From Escherichia phage vB_EcoM_ESCO47, in sequence record OM386662.1: a stretch of DNA of 64,000 nucleotides; one strand, given 5' to 3'. Every line of letters starts with the position of its first letter. Position 1 is the first letter of the stretch. The position numbers were made by a program, and so were the translations under genes. Below are positions 4,631-44,316 of this stretch, in pieces. The notes under the pieces are model-generated. The model searched no databases. It had not been told where the DNA came from and was given only the letters and a program-made list of their open reading frames with translations.

Positions 4631-5635
4631 TTAGAACACAAACAAAATATTAATTTCTTCCGTCTGGTCCATTGCCATAATAATTGGCGGACGGTTTTCC
4701 ATGTAAATCATTTCACCTGAATGTCGTTGTAAATCTTTGGGGTCATAATAGTCCTTTTCAGCTTTAACATTAGGGTCATTAGGATTTTTCTTGGCTTCTA
4801 ATGGGTTAGCGATAATAGAGATTTGACGAAAACCTCTATTACCAGGTAGAGCCGCTTCTGGAAAATACACCGAATCTAAATACGCTTTAAAACGCATCGT
4901 GTTGGCTTTAACACGATATATCAATCCAAAATCATCTTGCTGCCACGTTAGGTTATTTTCATATCCCCAACGAGAAGGGTCTTCTTTGATTTCTTCTGGC
5001 CACGGAACAACAAGGTATTCGTTAGTGCAACGGTTTATCGATACATCAGGTGGAATCTCATAAAGATATTCCCAAATGTAACCATCACCGGTTTCAATAA
5101 TACCGTTTGCATCACCACGTCCTTCAGGAGGCGACATTGAACGAATAGATGGAGTCCATTTACCACCTAATTTGAGACACTCTTCTTTATTAGTAAGAGA
5201 TTCTATTGAACATAATCCTACATCCGGCACATCTAAACAACGATAAATTAACCATCCAGCGCCAACTTCGGTGGCATTATACGGAGCGGTATTACATGCA
5301 ACGATATCATTAATTCTAAACGTATATGGATCAGGATAACGCACATCGCCCCAATCACGTCTAGGAATAACGGAATCTAGCATAGAAGGTAAAACTTTTA
5401 CGGTGCCCATCATATGGGTCCACATATCAGTTACACCGAGAACAGAATCTGTAGGATAAGGTGGGGCAAAGCCCACCTCATTCTCGTTTGCTGACCATGG
5501 TTCAGAACGTCCAAATGTAATAAAAATGGTGTTCTTGTCTTCCCCATTTCCTACCGAATTATAAAAATTCAGCATTTTCTCTGTTCTAAATTTTGATGTA
5601 ACTATTGCACGATAGATAACACTTGAATCATTCAT
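4631..5635 (-). CDS. 8: Baseplate wedge protein gp8
   Basis: 334 aa; sequence MNDSSVIYRAIVTSKFRTEKMLNFYNS... closely matches recalled T4 gp8. Confidence 0.9.
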   Translation of the reverse strand: MNDSSVIYRAIVTSKFRTEKMLNFYNSVGNGEDKNTIFITFGRSEPWSANENEVGFAPPYPTDSVLGVTDMWTHMMGTVKVLPSMLDSVIPRRDWGDVRYPDPYTFRINDIVACNTAPYNATEVGAGWLIYRCLDVPDVGLCSIESLTNKEECLKLGGKWTPSIRSMSPPEGRGDANGIIETGDGYIWEYLYEIPPDVSINRCTNEYLVVPWPEEIKEDPSRWGYENNLTWQQDDFGLIYRVKANTMRFKAYLDSVYFPEAALPGNRGFRQISIIANPLEAKKNPNDPNVKAEKDYYDPKDLQRHSGEMIYMENRPPIIMAMDQTEEINILFVF

Positions 5636-8600
5636 CTAATTTAACCTGTGGTGGATTCACGGGGTCTCTAGGATTTCCTACATTATCGATTAGTCTTTTC
5701 TCGACTAAATCTCTGAACTGAGCAAACGTAGTACCAGACGCATCGAATAATGGGCTCATCAGTTTACGACGTTCTGATGGTAATTGACCTTGGAAAATGG
5801 AGTTATCATTTTCTGCGTTGTAGTCGGCAGGTAAAGGATATTCCTGTCCAGCCATAGGACCTGCATCATATAATGCTTCGCCTGTAACAGGGTCGTATTC
5901 AACATTACCTTGAGGGTCCAATCTTGCCACCCGGTCAGCGTATTGCGTAGGTAATCCAGAATCCCACTTATAGTTTTTATATTTATTAATTATTGTTTCA
6001 ACATGTTTAAGCGTTAATCCAACGTTAATAAACATTGTCAAAAGAGTTATTGCGATGAAGCCAAATCCAACCGGATGAACAAAACGTAATACGTCAGATT
6101 TCCATCTAGACGAAGGCAGATTTGATTTAATCTTCATTACATAATAAGATCTACCACGATTTATGTAGTCTATATTGTTTTGAGATAATTCTTTACCTTT
6201 GATTCCACGAACGATCATACCGTCAAAGCTCGGAAGTCTTTCCGCTTTAACTTCTTGTCCCTCAATAAGACGACCTAAAAGGTTATGAATCGTTACAGTC
6301 CACTGCAATTTACCCTTAGAGTAGCTTCTTTCTAAATAAGTAACATTACAACGTCCTGTGGCCGTGAATATTGTCTGTCCTACTAAATCTTCTGTAATAG
6401 TGTCAGACTCAACAACAATATCATACTCGGTCCCAGAAGACGATTCTATTTCGACTTCAACGTCTTCATTATACAAAACTTTAAACAAGAATTTATATGA
6501 CGCTTCAGTTCCTTTTGTCGAATAGAAATCATAACTTCTTGACTCAAAGAATCGAGCCACCAAATCACGCTTTTCAGCATTAAGGTAAATATTTCGCTTA
6601 TAAATCTCAGACCATAAGTATTCCCATGCGTGTTCTTCACGTGGATACTGGTTTTTAATAAGATTTAACAGGTTGTTATAGTGGGTCCCATATCCATCTG
6701 ATAAGTATTGGATATATGCTTCACAGAACGCTTCAAAGTTTGAATTATCTAGCAAATACGATTCTGGCATCATAGTCGTGATCAAAGGACGTAAATCCGG
6801 ATCTGCAATACCGTTCTCTTCAACAGGATTCCATGGAGTTTCTCTTTCCTGATTTTGTAAAAATGCCAGTAAGAACGTTTCGGTAGGTTTCCAAATAATG
6901 GAAACGTTATCTCTTACACGATAACTAAAGTCGTAATAGGAAATAATCTCACCTGATGATTTATAGAAAATCATACCGGATGCATATTTTTTAAAGCCGG
7001 TGAAATCAATATTAGGCATAACGATAGTACAATCGCCATCATTCCAATATTCGTGTACTTTTCTATCCGGAGAAGACGCTGGTAAGTTTTCAACGGCCTT
7101 TGTATATAACAACTCAGAATAAATGACAACAGCCCTATCTGAGTTATTAATCCAACAACGGGTGTCAGACTTTCTTGAATAGTTAAAGAAAGGTTCTGCA
7201 TAGTATTTCATAGGTTGCGGACTAAATGATTCCCAACCGGACTCTTCTGTTGAAATGAATGCCATCATATGGTAATGCTTATCAGCAAGCCATTCTCGCG
7301 GGTATTCATATTTTACTGCGCCAAGAAGACCGTACTTTATTTGGGTGACCGGGTCATTAACAATATCAGATTCCAAGAATTTAAAATTGCTTGACGAAAT
7401 AAAGAGTTCGGTGCCATCTGTGGACATACTGGTGAATGCAGGTTCAATACGACGACGTTCTTCTTCAGTATTACCAAAGACTCTAGTAAATGTACCTGTG
7501 GAGTGGTCTAGTACGTAAACTCCTTTATCAACAGAATCAAGAATAGGATTTGTTCTAGGGTCGTCATTCACATTAGCAACTTCGCCAATAATCAATGCAA
7601 ACACCTTACCACCGATAGAATCCATTTTATAACAAACAGCTTTAGGATTACCTGTAATATTAAATGTTTCCGGCTCGAACAAACGCTCAGAATATGTCGG
7701 AGACAATGGGTCTGAATCAATAGGAGCATTACTCGTTCTAATAAAGCGAACTTTATCTCGAGCAGCAACATATACATAATCGTCGTTACAAACAATAGCT
7801 TCTGCGACACGAGATACGTTTGCAGGTAACGATGCATAGTTACCGAAGATTTCTACGTCAAAACCTAAATTCAATTGGTCGCCAATTTTAGCAAATGTTA
7901 CGTCTTGAGAACTAAATCGAACGTCATCAGACGACCAACGAACATCCGTCGATTTACGTCCATAAAATACTTTATCATAGCCGAGAACATAAGTTGTGTA
8001 ATCAGATTGATAATAAACTGTGCGAGATAATGGATATCCCACGCGGTCATTAAACAATTTAACGGCTTTCCATGTTTGGCCTTTGTCATTAGATACTTTA
8101 ACCACAGGCTGATAACGTTCAAACAAGTAAAGAATACCTTCAGATTCCATCAAATAAACACGATTAATATCTCGACAAACATGTTTAATGGACCCTTGAA
8201 TTTCATGGTACTCATTTTCACCAACGATAAAGTTTCTAATGGATGAAATATCAGCATAAGCCGGACTGAATTGGAACGATTCGTTCATCAATGCGGCCAT
8301 GATAGTGTCGTTATTAAAATCGACATAGGCATGGTTATTATTTGTAAATTTTTCACGAATAAAACTATTTGCCAACTGCATTTCAATCATATTTTGAAAT
8401 GTATAAGCGTTGGTTTGAAACGTTTCAAAAATTTCTGTTTGAACCCAGTCAGATTGAGTAAATCCTTCTGCTGCTGTTGCTACACGCATAGTATAAGACG
8501 TTAACGGGTCCAAGCCACTTTCAAAGTAGTTACTATTTGCTGTGTAGCCTAAATTAATCCAACGATAACTAGACTGGGGAATATCCTCCCCAGCGGCTGT

Positions 8601-13850: not shown

Positions 13851-13858
13851 TATAAATA
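13851..13858 (+). promoter_or_regulatory. T4 late promoter (gene 4)
   Basis: TATAAATA about 27 nt upstream of gene 4 ATG. Confidence 0.65.
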
Positions 13859-13865
13859 ATAATAC

Positions 13866-13873
13866 TATTTATA
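13866..13873 (-). promoter_or_regulatory. T4 late promoter (gene 53), divergent from gene 4 promoter
   Basis: TATAAATA on minus strand about 38 nt upstream of gene 53 start. Confidence 0.6.
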
Positions 13874-17405: not shown

Positions 17406-17717
17406 ATGAAAACTTATCAAGAATTTATCGCCGAAGCTTCTGCTGCGCCAAAGACATTCATTATTAATACTCAGGTAGGTCTTGACGATGAGTATGCGGA
17501 TGCAATTCTGAAGTCACTTGCTAAGAACGGCGTTGAAGTAATCGCTTCGGACTTTAAGAAAGGGGCTTCCGAGATGTTTATTTCTATAACTAAAGGATCT
17601 AAAGCTAAGATCAAATCATCGTTCGGAGTTGCTCGCACCGATCAAATCGACAGACATGACTTTAAACAAACCGGTGTTAAACGACAGAACACAATTGCAT
17701 CACGTGGAATAAAATAG
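17406..17717 (+). CDS. Internal head protein (IpI-like) with capsid targeting sequence
   Basis: N-terminus MKTYQEFIAEA = T4 internal-protein capsid targeting sequence with LxE prohead-protease site; own early promoter. Confidence 0.7.
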   Translation: MKTYQEFIAEASAAPKTFIINTQVGLDDEYADAILKSLAKNGVEVIASDFKKGASEMFISITKGSKAKIKSSFGVARTDQIDRHDFKQTGVKRQNTIASRGIK

Positions 17718-17730
17718 TTTCACAAACCAT

Positions 17731-17771
17731 GTTTACTTTTAGATGGGGTAGTGATACTATTACCCTATCAA
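17731..17771 (+). promoter_or_regulatory. T4-type early promoter
   Basis: GTTTAC ... TGATACTAT ... CCTATCAA. Confidence 0.55.
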
Positions 17772-17820
17772 AACAAAACATCCAAATGGAAACTAAAATG
17801 AAAACATATCAAGAATTTAT
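17752..17820 (+). repeat. 69-bp direct repeat (promoter, leader and first codons of an internal-protein gene), copy 1
   Basis: Identical to 18095-18163. Confidence 0.8.
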
Positions 17821-22897: not shown

Positions 22898-23235
22898 CCG
22901 TATGGCCTTCTCTTGGTGAGAACATTCTAATTTTTATTATGAGTATTGGCATGGGATTTGCCTTTGGATTAGTTGGATTTCTTATTGACAGCGTTGTGTT
23001 AGGATTTATAGGGAACACTGGTGGATTCACAGACCAATGGCAGGACTTACGGTATACCCAAGCCTTTGCATCCATCGCATCATTTTGTACTGTAGTCTAT
23101 TTTTACTACGATTTTATAAACCACAACAAGAAAAATAAAAAGGTTTACGCTTCTCAAATGATTAGTTATAATGAACTCCTAGCTAGACGTGAAAATGAAA
23201 CAATCGAAAACTTTATTAAGGAATGTAGAAAATGA
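22876..23235 (+). CDS. Small membrane protein, FIKECR-tail family
   Basis: AAGGA RBS; TM segments; ends ENFIKECRK. Confidence 0.5.
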   Translation: MQKPQLLTVWPSLGENILIFIMSIGMGFAFGLVGFLIDSVVLGFIGNTGGFTDQWQDLRYTQAFASIASFCTVVYFYYDFINHNKKNKKVYASQMISYNELLARRENETIENFIKECRK

Positions 23236-23828: not shown

Positions 23829-24026
23829 ATGTCTCGTGAATTAGATTGTGCTGTACGTACGGCAGTAGCTGCTCTGGAAAACCTGTTCCAAATTGCAACA
23901 GAAGAACGCGAAGAAGTTACATTATGGATTGAAGATAACGCAGGTCTGAATCTCCAGGACGCGATTTCATTATCCCACAATAGTATTACTGTTCAAGGCT
24001 GGGTATCATCTAGTTATTCTTGCTAA
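23829..24026 (+). CDS. Hypothetical protein, GWVSSSxxC-tail paralog 3
   Basis: AAGGA RBS; C-terminus QGWVSSSYSC. Confidence 0.5.
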   Translation: MSRELDCAVRTAVAALENLFQIATEEREEVTLWIEDNAGLNLQDAISLSHNSITVQGWVSSSYSC

Positions 24027-24030
24027 AACA

Positions 24031-24072
24031 GTTTACAACAAGATAGGGCTATGTTATAGTAGTCCTATCAAA
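24031..24072 (+). promoter_or_regulatory. T4-type early promoter
   Basis: GTTTAC ... TGTTATAGT ... CCTATCAA. Confidence 0.55.
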
Positions 24073-24088
24073 TTAAATGGAGTCCACA

Positions 24089-24328
24089 ATGATTTATTAC
24101 GAAAGTATCGGAACCGAAGTAGTTGCTAAAACTATTACTCGTGAAAAGTTTGCAAAGATATTCGATATGCGTTATAAAAAATCTGAACACAAAGGCATCC
24201 GATTCAAAGATGCGCACTGTACAATTTGCCCTTATAATGAAGACATAAATGGTACAATCGTTCCATTGGTAGAGGCTTCACATGATGACCTCTGGGATGA
24301 ATATAATATCGCATGTCGTGAAATTTAA
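24089..24328 (+). CDS. Hypothetical protein
   Basis: Start set at MIYYESIG after early promoter. Confidence 0.45.
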   Translation: MIYYESIGTEVVAKTITREKFAKIFDMRYKKSEHKGIRFKDAHCTICPYNEDINGTIVPLVEASHDDLWDEYNIACREI

Positions 24329-24353: not shown

Positions 24354-25310
24354 ATGATGTTAGTTATTGGTTCTCGTGCACTTCACTATCACGGTCTTAT
24401 TGATTCTAGCGCTATTAAAAATAGTGATTGGGACTTTATTGCGGATCAAGGTTCTTGGAATGCATTCAAAAATCAAATGATGGGTGTATATGTTCACCAA
24501 GATAACCCTGATGTCCAAGTTTTCAAATGCTTCCATAATGGACGCGAAACTCATTTTGAAGCATATATTGTTCCGGCAATCACTAATGTCCGTGAATTAG
24601 TCGGTGAACTCACTCCTGAAGATTTCACGTCTTCTTATGACCTTTTAAAATACGCCAGGAAAAATTTGACTAAAGACCGTTTGAACGGGTTTTACTGGGC
24701 AACTCCTGAGATATGTCTTGCAATTAAGATGTCTCATCGTTTCAAGAAAAATAATCCATTCTTTTTAAAGACTATGAACCATATTCAGTATCTTCGTGGT
24801 AAAGGTGTTACACCGAACGATGAACTTACTGAAATTATGCTGAAACGCCAGAAAGAAACCTTGAATTATGCTCACCCAGTTCTTGACACTTCTAAAAGTG
24901 CGTTCTTTAAAGATGACATCTATACATATGACCATGATACTATTCATGAAGCCATTGCACTAACAGACCGTCCAGCGTATACATTTTATATGAAAGACGG
25001 TTCTGAAGTCATGACCTCACGCGAGAAGTTCGAATTGTTACCAGAAATGGTCAAATTGGCCGGTGTATACGAAGAATCATGTGTACTAGCATTAGAACGT
25101 TCTCAGATTCCTAATGACTTTAAAATTAACCCTGAAGCCAGTTTCATGATGGCATTGGAAAAAGTCTGTACAAGCATCACCTCCGGTTGGTTCCGTGAGT
25201 ATGCCTGGGAAAACTACAGCAAAGTAGTAAGTATGTACCAAAGCTTAGGACATGATGATTACATCAAACGTTTCAAACAAAATTTCCATATGGTAAAACC
25301 TTTCAAATAA
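24354..25310 (+). CDS. Predicted nucleotidyltransferase-fold protein
   Basis: N-terminal GSRALHYHG...SDWDFIAD fits the minimal nucleotidyltransferase GS...DxD signature; GAGGA RBS. Confidence 0.5.
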   Translation: MMLVIGSRALHYHGLIDSSAIKNSDWDFIADQGSWNAFKNQMMGVYVHQDNPDVQVFKCFHNGRETHFEAYIVPAITNVRELVGELTPEDFTSSYDLLKYARKNLTKDRLNGFYWATPEICLAIKMSHRFKKNNPFFLKTMNHIQYLRGKGVTPNDELTEIMLKRQKETLNYAHPVLDTSKSAFFKDDIYTYDHDTIHEAIALTDRPAYTFYMKDGSEVMTSREKFELLPEMVKLAGVYEESCVLALERSQIPNDFKINPEASFMMALEKVCTSITSGWFREYAWENYSKVVSMYQSLGHDDYIKRFKQNFHMVKPFK

Positions 25311-25322
25311 CTTCACAAAACT

Positions 25323-25363
25323 GTTTACAACATGATAGGACTATGTTATAGTAGTCCTATTAA
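25323..25363 (+). promoter_or_regulatory. T4-type early promoter
   Basis: GTTTAC ... TGTTATAGT ... CCTATTAA. Confidence 0.55.
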
Positions 25364-25380
25364 AACATGAGGAGAATATT

Positions 25381-25686
25381 ATGAAATTAGGCGAAACCAA
25401 CCGAATTGGCCTTTTAACAATATTTGCATCACCTTTTTACGCAGCCCTTTCTGTTGCAGTATTACAAAAGGCTTACGATATGGATGGTGTTCCTGGTTTT
25501 GTATTCTTATCACCGTTTTTATTATTCGTCGGAGCATTGTTATTATATGCAACTACCGGTTTAGACCATAATGTCTGGGTCAATTATAAATGTAAATTGT
25601 CTGAAGAAGAACACGCAGAAGCTCGTAAAAAAACTATTGAATCTACCAATCTAGAAAATTTCATTAAAGAATGTCGAGGAAAATAA
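25381..25686 (+). CDS. Small membrane protein, FIKECR-tail family
   Basis: GAGGAG RBS; TM segments; ends ENFIKECRGK. Confidence 0.5.
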   Translation: MKLGETNRIGLLTIFASPFYAALSVAVLQKAYDMDGVPGFVFLSPFLLFVGALLLYATTGLDHNVWVNYKCKLSEEEHAEARKKTIESTNLENFIKECRGK

Positions 25687-26374: not shown

Positions 26375-26865
26375 TGATTAACAAAACATATTGGTCTAAT
26401 ATTGACGACGGCAATGAAGGTATTTCGTACTATTCAGTAGATTGGACAGGATGTCCATCCTACTTAGTGAAACGTATTTGCCAAGAATTTAAAATCAACC
26501 AGCCAGCAGGTATTATCGTGAACAGATACATTAATGGATATCAACCTATCGATGAAGTAATACGAACAACTCAAGCTGATCTTGAAAAGTTTTTCAATAA
26601 GTGCCAATGGATAACAGGATGGATTATATTTGTACCGTCGGTATGGTTTTTCAGTACTAAGGTGAGTTCTTTCGGTTTTGTTGATATTATCGCTATCTTA
26701 TTAGCATCTACTATTGTAAGTGTTGTTGGTGGCATCATTGGCGGCGGTACCGCCGCCATCATTATTAATCTTATTAAAAGTAGTTTACAAGAACATAAAG
26801 ACAAGATAAAAGCCAAGAATAATGAAGTTGAACGTTTTATTACCGAATGCAGGAATTTGAGATGA
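26374..26865 (+). CDS. Membrane protein, FIKECR-tail family
   Basis: TAATG coupling; Gly-rich TM segments; ends ERFITECRNLR. Confidence 0.5.
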   Translation: MINKTYWSNIDDGNEGISYYSVDWTGCPSYLVKRICQEFKINQPAGIIVNRYINGYQPIDEVIRTTQADLEKFFNKCQWITGWIIFVPSVWFFSTKVSSFGFVDIIAILLASTIVSVVGGIIGGGTAAIIINLIKSSLQEHKDKIKAKNNEVERFITECRNLR

Positions 26866-27098
26866 GTATAGCAATTTACATTAAGTCAGAATCATGTGAT
26901 AGTTATCTGTACACATACGATAAAGATGTGTCAGAAGAAAAAATCAAAGACGACCTTAATATGGACCTTGATATGTTCTGTCCTATTGCAGATTACAAAC
27001 TTGCGGTCTCTAATAGTGAAAGTCCATCTAAAGAAACGCGCATTGAAGAATTTATGTCCGAATTAATGGCCAAATCATGGAACAGAGATGATGAGTAA
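26862..27098 (+). CDS. Hypothetical protein
   Basis: ATGA-coupled start at MSIAIYIKSE. Confidence 0.45.
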   Translation: MSIAIYIKSESCDSYLYTYDKDVSEEKIKDDLNMDLDMFCPIADYKLAVSNSESPSKETRIEEFMSELMAKSWNRDDE

Positions 27099-27546
27099 GA
27101 AAAATAAAGTGAAAGAGCTATCAGCCGGTATTATTTTCCTTACCGAAGATAAAGAGTTATTCATGGGGCGTGTAACTGGTTCTCGTCCTAAAGGTGCATT
27201 AGCTCATCGGTGGGATATTCCTAAAGGCCGTGTCGAACCTGGCGAATCTCCTATTGAAGCCGCTATTCGTGAATGCGAAGAAGAAACTGGGTTTACACAG
27301 TATGATCCGGCCTTCCTGAAAGATCTAGGTGAACATCGATACTCAGATAATAAGAATATTCATCTGTTCTATTATACGATCCCTGTAGAGCACGAGCAAT
27401 TCAGACACAGTGTTTGTAGTGCTTATCATACATTCCCTGATGGAACTTCTATCCCAGAATTTGATGCATTTGCACTAATTAAACCGAGTCAATGGGAATA
27501 TGTAATGGGTAAATCTTTATATAAGGTGCTCACTGCCATTCTGTAA
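27088..27546 (+). CDS. nudE: Nudix hydrolase NudE
   Basis: Nudix box GESPIEAAIRECEEETGF; immediately upstream of e as in T4 (e.1). Confidence 0.85.
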   Translation: MMSKKNKVKELSAGIIFLTEDKELFMGRVTGSRPKGALAHRWDIPKGRVEPGESPIEAAIRECEEETGFTQYDPAFLKDLGEHRYSDNKNIHLFYYTIPVEHEQFRHSVCSAYHTFPDGTSIPEFDAFALIKPSQWEYVMGKSLYKVLTAIL

Positions 27547-27553
27547 TTAATAA

Positions 27554-27580
27554 ATACCTCCTATAAACGTGGGAGGTATT
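27554..27580 (+). promoter_or_regulatory. RBS-sequestering hairpin with embedded late-promoter-like box upstream of lysozyme e
   Basis: Perfect 8-bp stem ATACCTCC / GGAGGTAT; 3' arm contains the SD GGAGG; loop TATAAACGTG. Confidence 0.65.
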
Positions 27581-28075
27581 ATGAATATATTTGAAATGCT
27601 TCGTAATGACGAAGGTCTTAGACTGTCTTTATACAAAGACACTGAAGGCTTTTGGACGATTGGCATAGGCCATTTAGTAACAAAGAACCCGTCTTTAGCC
27701 GTAGCTAAAGCTGAACTTGACCGAATGATAGGTCGTAAATGCAACGGTACAATTACACTTGATGAGGCTGAAAAGCTATTTAATGAAGACGTTGATAAAG
27801 CCGTTCGCGGAATCTTGGGTAATGCTAAACTAAAACTGGTTTATGATTCTTTAGATGCGGTGAGACGTTGTGCATTAATAAATATGGTCTTCCAAATGGG
27901 TGTAGCAGGCGTCGCAGGTTTTACTAATTCTCTTCGTATGCTTCAGCAGAAACGTTGGGATGAGGCAGCAGTAAACCTTGCCCAGAGCAAGTGGTACCGT
28001 CAGACGCCTAATCGCGCAAAACGTGTGATTGCTACCTTTAAAACTGGTACATGGACCGCGTATAAAAATCTATAA
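27581..28075 (+). CDS. e: Endolysin (T4 lysozyme, gene e)
   Basis: [32 protein letters not shown]... near-identical to recalled T4 lysozyme; start set at MNIF (ORF-track start 27569 upstream). Confidence 0.95.
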
Positions 28076-28115: not shown

Positions 28116-28193
28116 AGTTACTTGAACAGACAAATCACTAATTAAAATATTTACATTTAGAACTCATATGAAAACATATAAAGAATTTATCGC
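28116..28193 (+). repeat. 78-bp direct repeat (leader and CTS codons), copy 1
   Basis: Matches 28602-28679 with one mismatch. Confidence 0.8.
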
Positions 28194-28566
28194 AGAGAAT
28201 GTAATTCCTGCATCTAAAGAACTTTTGGTGACGTTTGAATCCGAAGAGTTCACCGAAGAACTGAATGAGAACCTGACTACTGCCACACCTCAGGTTATCC
28301 GTGTTCGTAACGCCCTGCAGTCAGGCATGCCGGCCGGTGTCTCTAAGACCATGAAGTTGGCATTCACTACTTCTAATAACGAAGACTTTGGCAACGGTAT
28401 CGCTATGAACACTGGGCAGTATTATGTTGAGTGGAACGGTGAAACCGGCACGGCTAAGATTCGTCAGACACGTGCCGCTGGTGGCAAAATGCTGGACGTT
28501 AAACTAAACGTTAAAGAGAAAGACGTTGTAGCTCTGTTCAAGAACTGGATGAAATCTTACAAATAA
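28168..28566 (+). CDS. Internal head protein (IpIII-like position) with capsid targeting sequence
   Basis: N-terminus MKTYKEFIAEN; position after e as T4 ipIII. Confidence 0.65.
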   Translation: MKTYKEFIAENVIPASKELLVTFESEEFTEELNENLTTATPQVIRVRNALQSGMPAGVSKTMKLAFTTSNNEDFGNGIAMNTGQYYVEWNGETGTAKIRQTRAAGGKMLDVKLNVKEKDVVALFKNWMKSYK

Positions 28567-28601: not shown

Positions 28602-28679
28602 AGTTACTTGAACAGACAAATCACTAATTAAAATATTTACATTTAGGACTCATATGAAAACATATAAAGAATTTATCGC
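28602..28679 (+). repeat. 78-bp direct repeat, copy 2
   Basis: Matches 28116-28193 with one mismatch. Confidence 0.8.
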
Positions 28680-29229
28680 TGAAGCTTCTGTAGCAAAAGC
28701 CCAAGGCATTAATAAAGACGAGTGGACTTACCGCGGAAATGGCTTTGACCCTAAAACAGCTCCTATCGAACGGTACTTAGCTACAAAGGCTTCCGACTTT
28801 AAAGCCTTCGCTTGGGAAGGACTTCGCTGGCGTAACGATCTAAATATTGAAGTTGACGGACTTAAATTTGCCCATATTCAAGATGTTGTTGCTAGTAACT
28901 TGGACGCAGCTTTTGTTAAAGCTGACGGTGACCTTCGTCGCTGGAATTTAAAACTATTCTCTAAACAGAAAGGTCCGGTGTTTGTGCCTAAAGCTGGTAA
29001 ATGGGTTATTGATAATAAATTAGCTAAGGCTGTCAACTACGCTGGTCTTGAATTCGCCAAGCATAAATCAAGATGGAAAGGTCTTGATGCAATGGACTTC
29101 CGTAAAGAATTTGCCGATGTTATGACTAAAGGCGGCTTTAAGGCAGAAATAGATACCTCTAAAGGTATGTTTAAAGACGCTAATATTCAGTACGCGTATG
29201 CTGTTGCTAATGCAGCCCGTGGTAATTAA
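28654..29229 (+). CDS. Internal head protein (IpII/IpIII-like) with capsid targeting sequence
   Basis: N-terminus MKTYKEFIAEA; 78-bp leader repeat shared with previous gene. Confidence 0.65.
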   Translation: MKTYKEFIAEASVAKAQGINKDEWTYRGNGFDPKTAPIERYLATKASDFKAFAWEGLRWRNDLNIEVDGLKFAHIQDVVASNLDAAFVKADGDLRRWNLKLFSKQKGPVFVPKAGKWVIDNKLAKAVNYAGLEFAKHKSRWKGLDAMDFRKEFADVMTKGGFKAEIDTSKGMFKDANIQYAYAVANAARGN

Positions 29230-29267: not shown

Positions 29268-29570
29268 ATGAAAACATATCAAGAATTTATTACTGAAGCG
29301 CGAGTGAGTGCAGGTAAATTAGAAGCCGCTATAAATAAAAAGGCCCATTCATTTCATGATTTGTCCGATAAAGACCGTAAGAAACTTGTAAGCCTTTATA
29401 TTGACAAAGAGCGTATTCTCGCTCTTCCTGGCGCTAATGAAGGTAAACAGGCCAAGCCTTTGAATGCTGTCGAAAAGAAAATTGATAACTTTGCTTCTAA
29501 ATTTGGTATGTCTATGGATGACCTTCAGCAAGCGGCTATCGAAGCAGCTAAAGTAATTAAAGGTAAATAA
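29268..29570 (+). CDS. Internal head protein family member with capsid targeting sequence
   Basis: N-terminus MKTYQEFITEA. Confidence 0.65.
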   Translation: MKTYQEFITEARVSAGKLEAAINKKAHSFHDLSDKDRKKLVSLYIDKERILALPGANEGKQAKPLNAVEKKIDNFASKFGMSMDDLQQAAIEAAKVIKGK

Positions 29571-43805: not shown

Positions 43806-43813
43806 TATAAATA
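43806..43813 (+). promoter_or_regulatory. T4 late promoter (gene 49)
   Basis: TATAAATA 30 nt upstream of gene 49 ATG, followed by a short hairpin. Confidence 0.6.
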
Positions 43814-43842
43814 CCCTTATCTATTTAAGGTAAGGGTTTATC

Positions 43843-44316
43843 ATGTTATTATCAGGCGCAAAATATAAAGAAGAAAAACAAAAATTTTATGATGCACAGA
43901 ATGGTAAGTGTCCTATTTGCCACCGTGAATTAGACCCTGATGTTCAAGGTAACCATCTTGACCACGACCACGAATTAAACGGGCCAAAAGCCGGTAGAGT
44001 TCGTGGATTACTCTGTAATCTGTGCAACGCAGCAGAAGGTCAAATGAAGCATAAGTTCAACCGTTCCGGTCTTAAAGGCTGTGATGTCGACTACCTAGAA
44101 TGGCTTGAAGCTCTTCTTGCTTATTTGAAACAAGATTATTCTGATAATAATATCCATCCTAATTTTGTTCCAGACAAAACTAAAGAGTTCTCAAGACTAT
44201 GTAAAGAGGAAATGATGGCTGAGATGCTTCAAAGAGGATTTGAATATAATGAATCTGATACTAAAACACAATTAATAGCTTCATTCAAAAAGCAGCTTAG
44301 AAAGAGTTTAAAATGA
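43843..44316 (+). CDS. 49: Endonuclease VII (Holliday junction resolvase) gp49
   Basis: 157 aa MLLSGAKYKEEKQKFYDAQNGKCPICHREL...HLDHDHELNGPKAGRVRGLLCNLCN matches recalled T4 gp49; late promoter upstream. Confidence 0.9.
   Translation: MLLSGAKYKEEKQKFYDAQNGKCPICHRELDPDVQGNHLDHDHELNGPKAGRVRGLLCNLCNAAEGQMKHKFNRSGLKGCDVDYLEWLEALLAYLKQDYSDNNIHPNFVPDKTKEFSRLCKEEMMAEMLQRGFEYNESDTKTQLIASFKKQLRKSLK

Follow-up and report, generated by a model that had tools for sequence, protein, structure and literature searches.

Four cases have been published in bacteriophage T4 in which a late promoter set within a hairpin forms a switch for translation, namely those of the lysozyme gene e, gene 49 (endonuclease VII), soc and I-TevI (PMC3014915). 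For e, the section of the review by Uzan & Miller 2010 that deals with this leader (PMC3014915, section 29 and Fig. 5A), which cites the original study of McPheeters et al. 1986 (NAR 14:5813), describes how early transcripts run into e, fold into an inhibitory structure and are not translated, lysozyme synthesis from them being cut ~100-fold; late e RNAs that lack the 5' strand of the structure are translated. Two late promoters are given for T4 e in the same review, and the legend of its Fig. 5 attributes the 5' ends shown there for T4 to the upstream one. The logic described for gene 49, soc and I-TevI is similar, in that early or middle promoters lying upstream give RNA in which a Shine-Dalgarno sequence (SD) or AUG is buried, and open RNA comes from a late promoter set in the 5' strand (PMC3014915). 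However, these three leaders belong to different genes and have unrelated sequences, and they resemble the e leader by analogy rather than by homology.

Similar e leaders have also been predicted in closely related T4-type phages (PMC3014915). Since that review already covers both the mechanism and the relatives of T4, the finding described below, including its comparative aspect, is already in the literature: the mechanism is the textbook T4 case, its conservation in T4 relatives is published, and the significance of the present analysis lies mainly in correct annotation. No usable RNA-seq or transcription-start-site data for T4 came out of a literature search.

The leader of gene e in a Mosigvirus-like genome

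The DNA analysed here is a single stretch of 64 kb (hereafter the window) from a Mosigvirus-like (RB69-group) T-even phage, in which the nudE-e region is 90-92% identical to ~150 Mosigvirus records. The end of nudE is separated from the start codon of e by 34 nt, both genes lie on the same strand, the gene order is that of T4 and RB69, and the e product is ~84% identical to that of T4 e (tblastn). Judged by this setting and by its sequence, the element between the two genes is orthologous to the nudE-e junction of T4, and represents the RB69-type form of the gene e translational timing switch. The coordinates of the features discussed are collected in Table 1.

Table 1 Features of the nudE-e junction and of related sites in the window, with the T4 and window leaders for comparison
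Feature	Position	Strand	Sequence	Basis and remarks
nudE (NUDIX hydrolase)	27088-27546	+		ORF list; Pfam NUDIX, E 2e-16; stop codon 27544-27546
Upstream box	27549-27556	+	AATAAATA	gp55-type late box with A at -13; overlaps first 4 nt of 5' arm
5' arm	27553-27561	+	AATACCTCC	Repeat finder; RNA arm reaches 27564 (UAU)
Loop	27562-27571	+	TATAAACGTG	Holds degenerate box TATAAACG (27562-27569), counterpart of the second, loop-borne TATAAATA of T4
Predicted late transcription start	27562-27563	+		6th or 7th nt after the upstream box; from the geometry in PMC1524935
3' arm	27572-27580	+	GGAGGTATT	Repeat finder; contains Shine-Dalgarno GGAGG 27572-27576
Gene e, T4-type endolysin, 164 aa	27581-28075	+		Pfam Phage_lysozyme, E 2e-13; product starts MNIFEMLR like T4 lysozyme
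Nearest T4-early-type promoter-like site	25323-25352	+		Consensus scan; GTTTACA, 17 nt, TATAGT with TG extension
Leader of gene 49 homologue	43806-43845	+	ACCCTTATC...GGTAAGGGT	Perfect TATAAATA at 43806, then the hairpin; ATG 43843
Leader comparison: T4			tttTATAAATAccttcTATAAATActtaGGAGGtattATG	
Leader comparison: window			ttaATAAATAcctccTATAAACGtgGGAGGtattATG	

Between positions 27546 and 27583 the window reads aTTAATAAATACCTCCTATAAACGTGGGAGGTATTATG, and a repeat finder recovers from it two arms of 9 nt each, 100% complementary and separated by 10 nt. The sequence-only reading of this DNA, made before the present analysis, had described a perfect 8-bp stem, ATACCTCC / GGAGGTAT (27554-27561 / 27572-27579), enclosing the same loop as we find; this is correct, with one extra outer A-T pair to be added. 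It had also placed a GGAGG ribosome-binding site in the 3' arm, which holds, yet the distance of 5 nt that it gave to the start codon does not, as the spacer is TATT, 4 nt long (a count of five runs from G to A), and the ATG occupies 27581-27583. In the RNA, three inner pairs (U-G, A-U and U-G) extend the stem to 12 bp, closed by an AAAC tetraloop. This fold has a predicted energy of -16.3 kcal/mol (z = -5.56), a stability reached by none of 200 dinucleotide shuffles, and the same hairpin is dominant when folded in a 101-nt context. Moreover, in an in silico model of a 161-nt read-through RNA, the probability of being unpaired is 0.00 for all five bases of the SD. The SD-sequestering hairpin at e is genuine and, judged by homology with T4, functional.

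Comparison with T4 and RB69

The leader is nearly identical in sequence to that of T4 and occupies the same junction, which bears out the earlier claim that the architecture of the T4 e leader is conserved here. The 3' arm and the ATG that follows it are identical in the two phages, and the 5' arm differs at a single base (CCTTC in T4, CCTCC in the window), which turns a U-G pair into a C-G pair. An upstream late box lies at the same position in both, overlapping the 5' arm. However, T4 possesses two perfect copies of TATAAATA, the first overlapping the 5' arm and the second lying in the loop, and both are altered in the window: the upstream box reads AATAAATA, and the loop box has decayed to TATAAACG, so that one plausible late promoter for e is left in the window versus two in T4. 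The 9-bp arms are separated by 12 nt in T4 and by 10 nt in the window, the terminal loop of the minimum free energy structure measures 8 and 4 nt respectively, and the hairpin is predicted to be stronger in the window (-16.3 vs -13.3 kcal/mol). The predicted outcome for early and late RNA is nonetheless alike for the two leaders.

RB69 (NC_004928) is closer still, with the 35 nt from AATAAATA to the ATG identical to those of the window, whereas the sequence just upstream (the end of nudE and the spacer) differs. In its RefSeq record, e is annotated from an internal methionine, Met6 (ATGCTTCGT; record positions 65200-65673, or 5201-5674 of our locus L078), an annotation that omits MNIFE together with the hairpin-borne GGAGG-ATG start. 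We regard this as probably a misannotation of the start codon, and its effect is to hide the relationship between SD and hairpin in the record. The start codon of e is the ATG that stands at 27581 in the window, and it is this codon that the RB69 record misses.

The probable late promoter of e

The T4-type late box spans -13 to -6, and T at -13 is poorly conserved in RB69 and other phages (PMC1524935). Among 50 late sites of T4, 32 are perfect and 9 carry A at -13, which is the commonest natural variant, the rest showing single deviations, with multiple deviations at only 2 of the 50 (PMC2988020). We checked 19 late sites of RB69 taken from a published HMM list of 31, and found TATAAATA at 15 of them, AATAAATA at three and TATAAAGA at one; none of the 19 deviates at both -7 and -6. 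Judged by its sequence and by its alignment with the upstream TATAAATA of T4, the upstream box (27549-27556) is likely to be the functional late promoter of e. The published list of 31 RB69 late promoters contains no site near e, which counts against this preferred reading, but e is probably missing from it because CCTCC makes the segment after the box rich in GC, where typical late promoters are AT-rich.

With the box at -13 to -6, CCTCC would occupy -5 to -1 and +1 would fall at 27562/27563. The strand that pairs with the SD would consequently be promoter DNA that is missing from the late RNA, and indeed truncated RNAs that start at 27562/27563 lose the -16 kcal/mol hairpin when folded.

A separate arrangement of late boxes is found at 13851-13873, where two perfect TATAAATA boxes, one on either strand, stand back to back at a distance of 15 nt, and each is followed by an ORF start. 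A similar divergent pair of late promoters is published for RB69, at 80613+ and 80684-, where it lies between genes 4 and 53.

Conservation across relatives

For comparison we used 75 loci encoding lysozyme relatives (IMG/VR). In 33 of them the lysozyme identity is 62% or higher, and with T4, RB69 and the window added, these 33 provide 19 distinct leaders. In every one of the 33 loci, as in T4 and RB69, [A/T/G]ATAAATA directly abuts a hairpin that carries the SD in its 3' arm. The base at -13 is A in 11 of the distinct leaders, T in 4 and G in 4, and ATAAATAC (the ATAAATA box) is invariant. The loop, in contrast, varies freely (TATACTCA, TATATAAG, TATCAATA, TATTAGAG, TATAATTT and others), and a loop box is, on this sequence comparison, a peculiarity of the T4 group. 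Predicted stabilities across the 19 leaders range from -8.7 to -16.6 kcal/mol, with lineage-specific flanks supplying extra pairing. Such extra pairs lie outside the core (AAUA/UAUU) in the T4, RB69, JS98-like and VR25-like groups, and inside it (UAUC/GAUA, UAUAU/GUAUA) in the CC31-like, Klebsiella-phage-like and CHI14-like groups, all group names being our own assignments. The more distant lysozyme loci among the 75 lack the arrangement, in agreement with the list in PMC3014915 of phages without the structure.

A MAFFT alignment of the 19 leaders put two stem registers out of phase, because the 5' arm of one group is 1 nt shorter, and was replaced by the alignment of a covariance model built from 6 leaders. 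This model finds the e leader at the start of e in all 33 loci, T4, RB69 and the window (58.3 bits in the window, 56 bits in T4), and in its alignment 88% of cells are paired, compared with 42-62% once partners are shifted by 1-3 columns. Of the 12 pairs, four are invariant and no more than three carry double changes, which come in part from reverse-strand rows of the palindrome. In an SD-anchored table all leaders share an unchanged CUCC/GGAG core, and one lineage (L010) shows a change from U-A to C-G within the SD itself, giving CCCC/GGGG. Strict covariation is weak because the core CCUCC/GGAGG pairs hardly vary, and the comparative support, as read from these sequences, is consequently one of conserved SD sequestration and pairing, not of compensatory change.

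A hairpin of similar kind was encountered on an unrelated T4-like contig (L032, 2517-2551, + strand) ~1 kb downstream of e, where a perfect SD-sequestering stem, GTCCTCCTA...TAGGAGGAC, precedes another start codon (ATATG). It matches the covariance model at E 0.9 and has no recognisable late box in front.

A proposed timing switch

We consider it highly probable that the hairpin is a Mosigvirus switch of the T4 e type, with a late start from the upstream AATAAATA box. To the anatomy, fold, T4 orthology and conservation across relatives observed above, this proposal adds early and late RNA ends and a translational effect that are predicted from promoter geometry and from what was found experimentally in T4. 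In the early phase of infection, transcripts starting at sigma-70-type early promoters, the nearest candidate being ~2.2 kb upstream (25323), would cross nudE into e. In such read-through RNA, AAUACCUCC(UAU) would pair with (GUG)GGAGGUAUU, and, with the SD thus buried in a hairpin of ~-16 kcal/mol, 30S subunits could not bind and no lysozyme would be made. After the onset of replication, gp55-RNA polymerase would initiate at the upstream box, and the late RNA, starting at about 27562/27563 and thus without the 5' arm, would have its SD largely exposed and would be translated. The two halves of this scheme, an untranslated early read-through RNA and a late RNA that exposes the SD, had been ascribed to T4 in the sequence-only reading, in agreement with PMC3014915.

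The late RNA is, however, not predicted to be fully open. An imperfect palindrome, GAGGTATTATGAATATA / TATATTTGAAATGCTTC (27573-27602, + strand, 71% complementary), allows the SD to pair with codons 5-8 in RNA lacking the 5' arm, and this weaker pairing, through GAGGUAUU, has a predicted energy of -7.8 kcal/mol. The helix with codons 5-8 is not predicted for late RNA of T4 (-3.5 kcal/mol, the SD being unpaired with the coding region). In several other lineages the SD is predicted to pair in a similarly weak way with GCUUCG.

Early RNA would likely be supplied by the candidate promoter at 25323, a function that we assign from its sequence and position. Consensus scans place three early-type promoter-like sites (GTTTAC, 17 nt, TATAAT/TATAGT) upstream of e on the + strand, at 23143, 24031 and 25323. 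Between 25352 and 27581 a terminator scan calls no T-run terminator, its sole call in this interval being a weak GC hairpin with a poor tail (26739-26758).

Alternative explanations

Several other explanations may be offered for the hairpin. That it is a chance palindrome with no regulatory role seems extremely improbable, even though structures of this stability are not rare: a sliding 35-nt fold over the whole 64-kb window finds ~9 hairpins on the + strand at or below -16.3 kcal/mol, so that with ~9 equally or more stable hairpins per strand, the e hairpin is not unique by stability alone. Nor do promoter-like 8-mers exceed chance within the window, where the loop 8-mer TATAAACG is observed twice versus 3.4 expected, and [A/T]ATAAATA (WATAAATA) 16 times versus 17.7 expected; as these motif counts are unsupportive, our promoter calls are based on position and conservation only. 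A search of Rfam gave no family match, the sole hit being a chance one to a miRNA model (19.5 bits vs a gathering score of 72). The 35-nt segment that ends at the start codon was folded for the 86 ORF starts in the window that possess an SD-like tetramer. The e leader is the most stable of them (-16.3 kcal/mol, against a median of -2.4 and a 5th percentile of -7.4), and it alone combines an energy of -10 kcal/mol or lower with a fully paired SD. In second place comes the gene 49 (endonuclease VII) homologue, with its start at 43843, so that both of the best-folded starts belong to homologues of known T4 switches. The hairpin of this homologue covers an AAGG ribosome-binding site (-12.9 kcal/mol), its product is 157 aa long with a Pfam Endonuclease_7 match, and its leader has the same design as the e switch, matching the published T4 gene 49 case. 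Moreover, a chance origin fits poorly with an arrangement retained in all 33 related loci despite turnover of flank and loop sequences, or with the experimental characterisation of the orthologous element in T4. A reading with better grounds, although one we still consider improbable, is that the hairpin serves mainly as an intrinsic terminator or 3'-end stabiliser of the early nudE transcript, the timing of lysozyme being set by transcription alone. Indeed, at least one Mosigvirus record (NBG1, MH243438; 757-804 of our locus L079) places a 'terminator' feature precisely in the interval from nudE to the lysozyme gene, three more list one somewhere under a 988-nt nudE-e query, and the stem is stable with a moderately U-rich downstream sequence (UAUUAUGAAUAUAUUU). 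However, the pattern of an intrinsic terminator, a GC-rich stem followed immediately by a U run, is absent at the e hairpin, whose tail reads AUGAAUAUAUUU without a T-run, and the terminator scan does not call it. T4 early transcripts, furthermore, extend into e and form the inhibitory structure (PMC3014915), and the features that are conserved, pairing of the SD and placement beside a late box, are ones that a terminator needs in neither case. Termination as the main function is rejected here and kept as a low-probability rival or secondary role, and the label 'terminator' is inappropriate for the nudE-e hairpin in Mosigvirus genomes.

The remaining explanations concern the promoter. The sequence-only reading had proposed a T4-like switch in which the late-promoter box is the loop box TATAAACG; late transcripts would then start inside the 3' half of the hairpin. 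This version we judge to be unlikely and its choice of box probably wrong. The loop box does stand at the position of the second TATAAATA of T4, for which PMC3014915 speaks of two e late promoters, and T-A-T-A-A-A is intact in it, with all three of the bases (-12, -9 and -8) that are inserted into pockets by gp55 (PMC7892883). Yet it carries two deviations, C at -7 and G at -6, occurs in the window at no more than chance frequency, and lies in a loop for which no lineage beyond the T4 group shows conservation, in contrast to the invariant upstream box. Its start geometry is also poor: given a loop 2 nt shorter than that of T4, transcription beginning 6 nt beyond the box would start inside GGAGG, with +1 predicted at 27574/27575, leaving at most AGG and a leader of 6-7 nt. 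In T4, with its loop 2 nt longer, a start from the loop box would leave GAGG. Of similarly low probability, in our view, is a more radical departure from T4, namely that either the RB69-type e switch has been rewired, or TATAAACG is a working non-canonical gp55 promoter that produces an almost leaderless e mRNA. Rewiring may comprise the loss of the loop promoter, the 12-bp tetraloop stem and a single A(-13) promoter that is GC-rich from -5 to -1, and late RNA may be partly damped by the weaker pairing of the SD with codons 5-8 (27573-27602); if so, these features together could delay lysozyme or lower its level. Under the preferred reading, of a T4-type switch with its late start at the upstream box, the loop box is probably a decayed counterpart of the second late promoter of T4 that contributes little or nothing, and may have weak promoter activity. 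For annotation purposes, the late promoter relevant to e is thus the box at 27549-27556, and not the loop sequence.

Sequences flanking the nudE-e region

A cassette is repeated three times on the + strand of the window, at 24015-24095, 25307-25387 and 17715-17795. Each copy contains, in order, GTTTAC (-35-like), a hairpin of ~28 nt (GATAGGGCTATGTTATAGTAGTCCTATC), AAAA and an SD-ATG, with a TATAGT -10 element carried by the loop and 3' side of the hairpin. The cassette resembles the promoter-early stem-loop (PeSL) modules described for T4-type phages.

On the 3' side of e, the match between the window and other Mosigvirus records breaks off 11 nt before the end of the gene (in the 988-nt query, matches end at base 977). 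Three ORFs follow directly on the + strand (28168-28566, 28654-29229 and 29268-29570), none of which has a Pfam match. All three products start MKTY(K/Q)EFI(A/T)E, a shared beginning that resembles the capsid-targeting sequence of T4 internal proteins and suggests that the ORFs 3' of e form a variable internal-protein locus.
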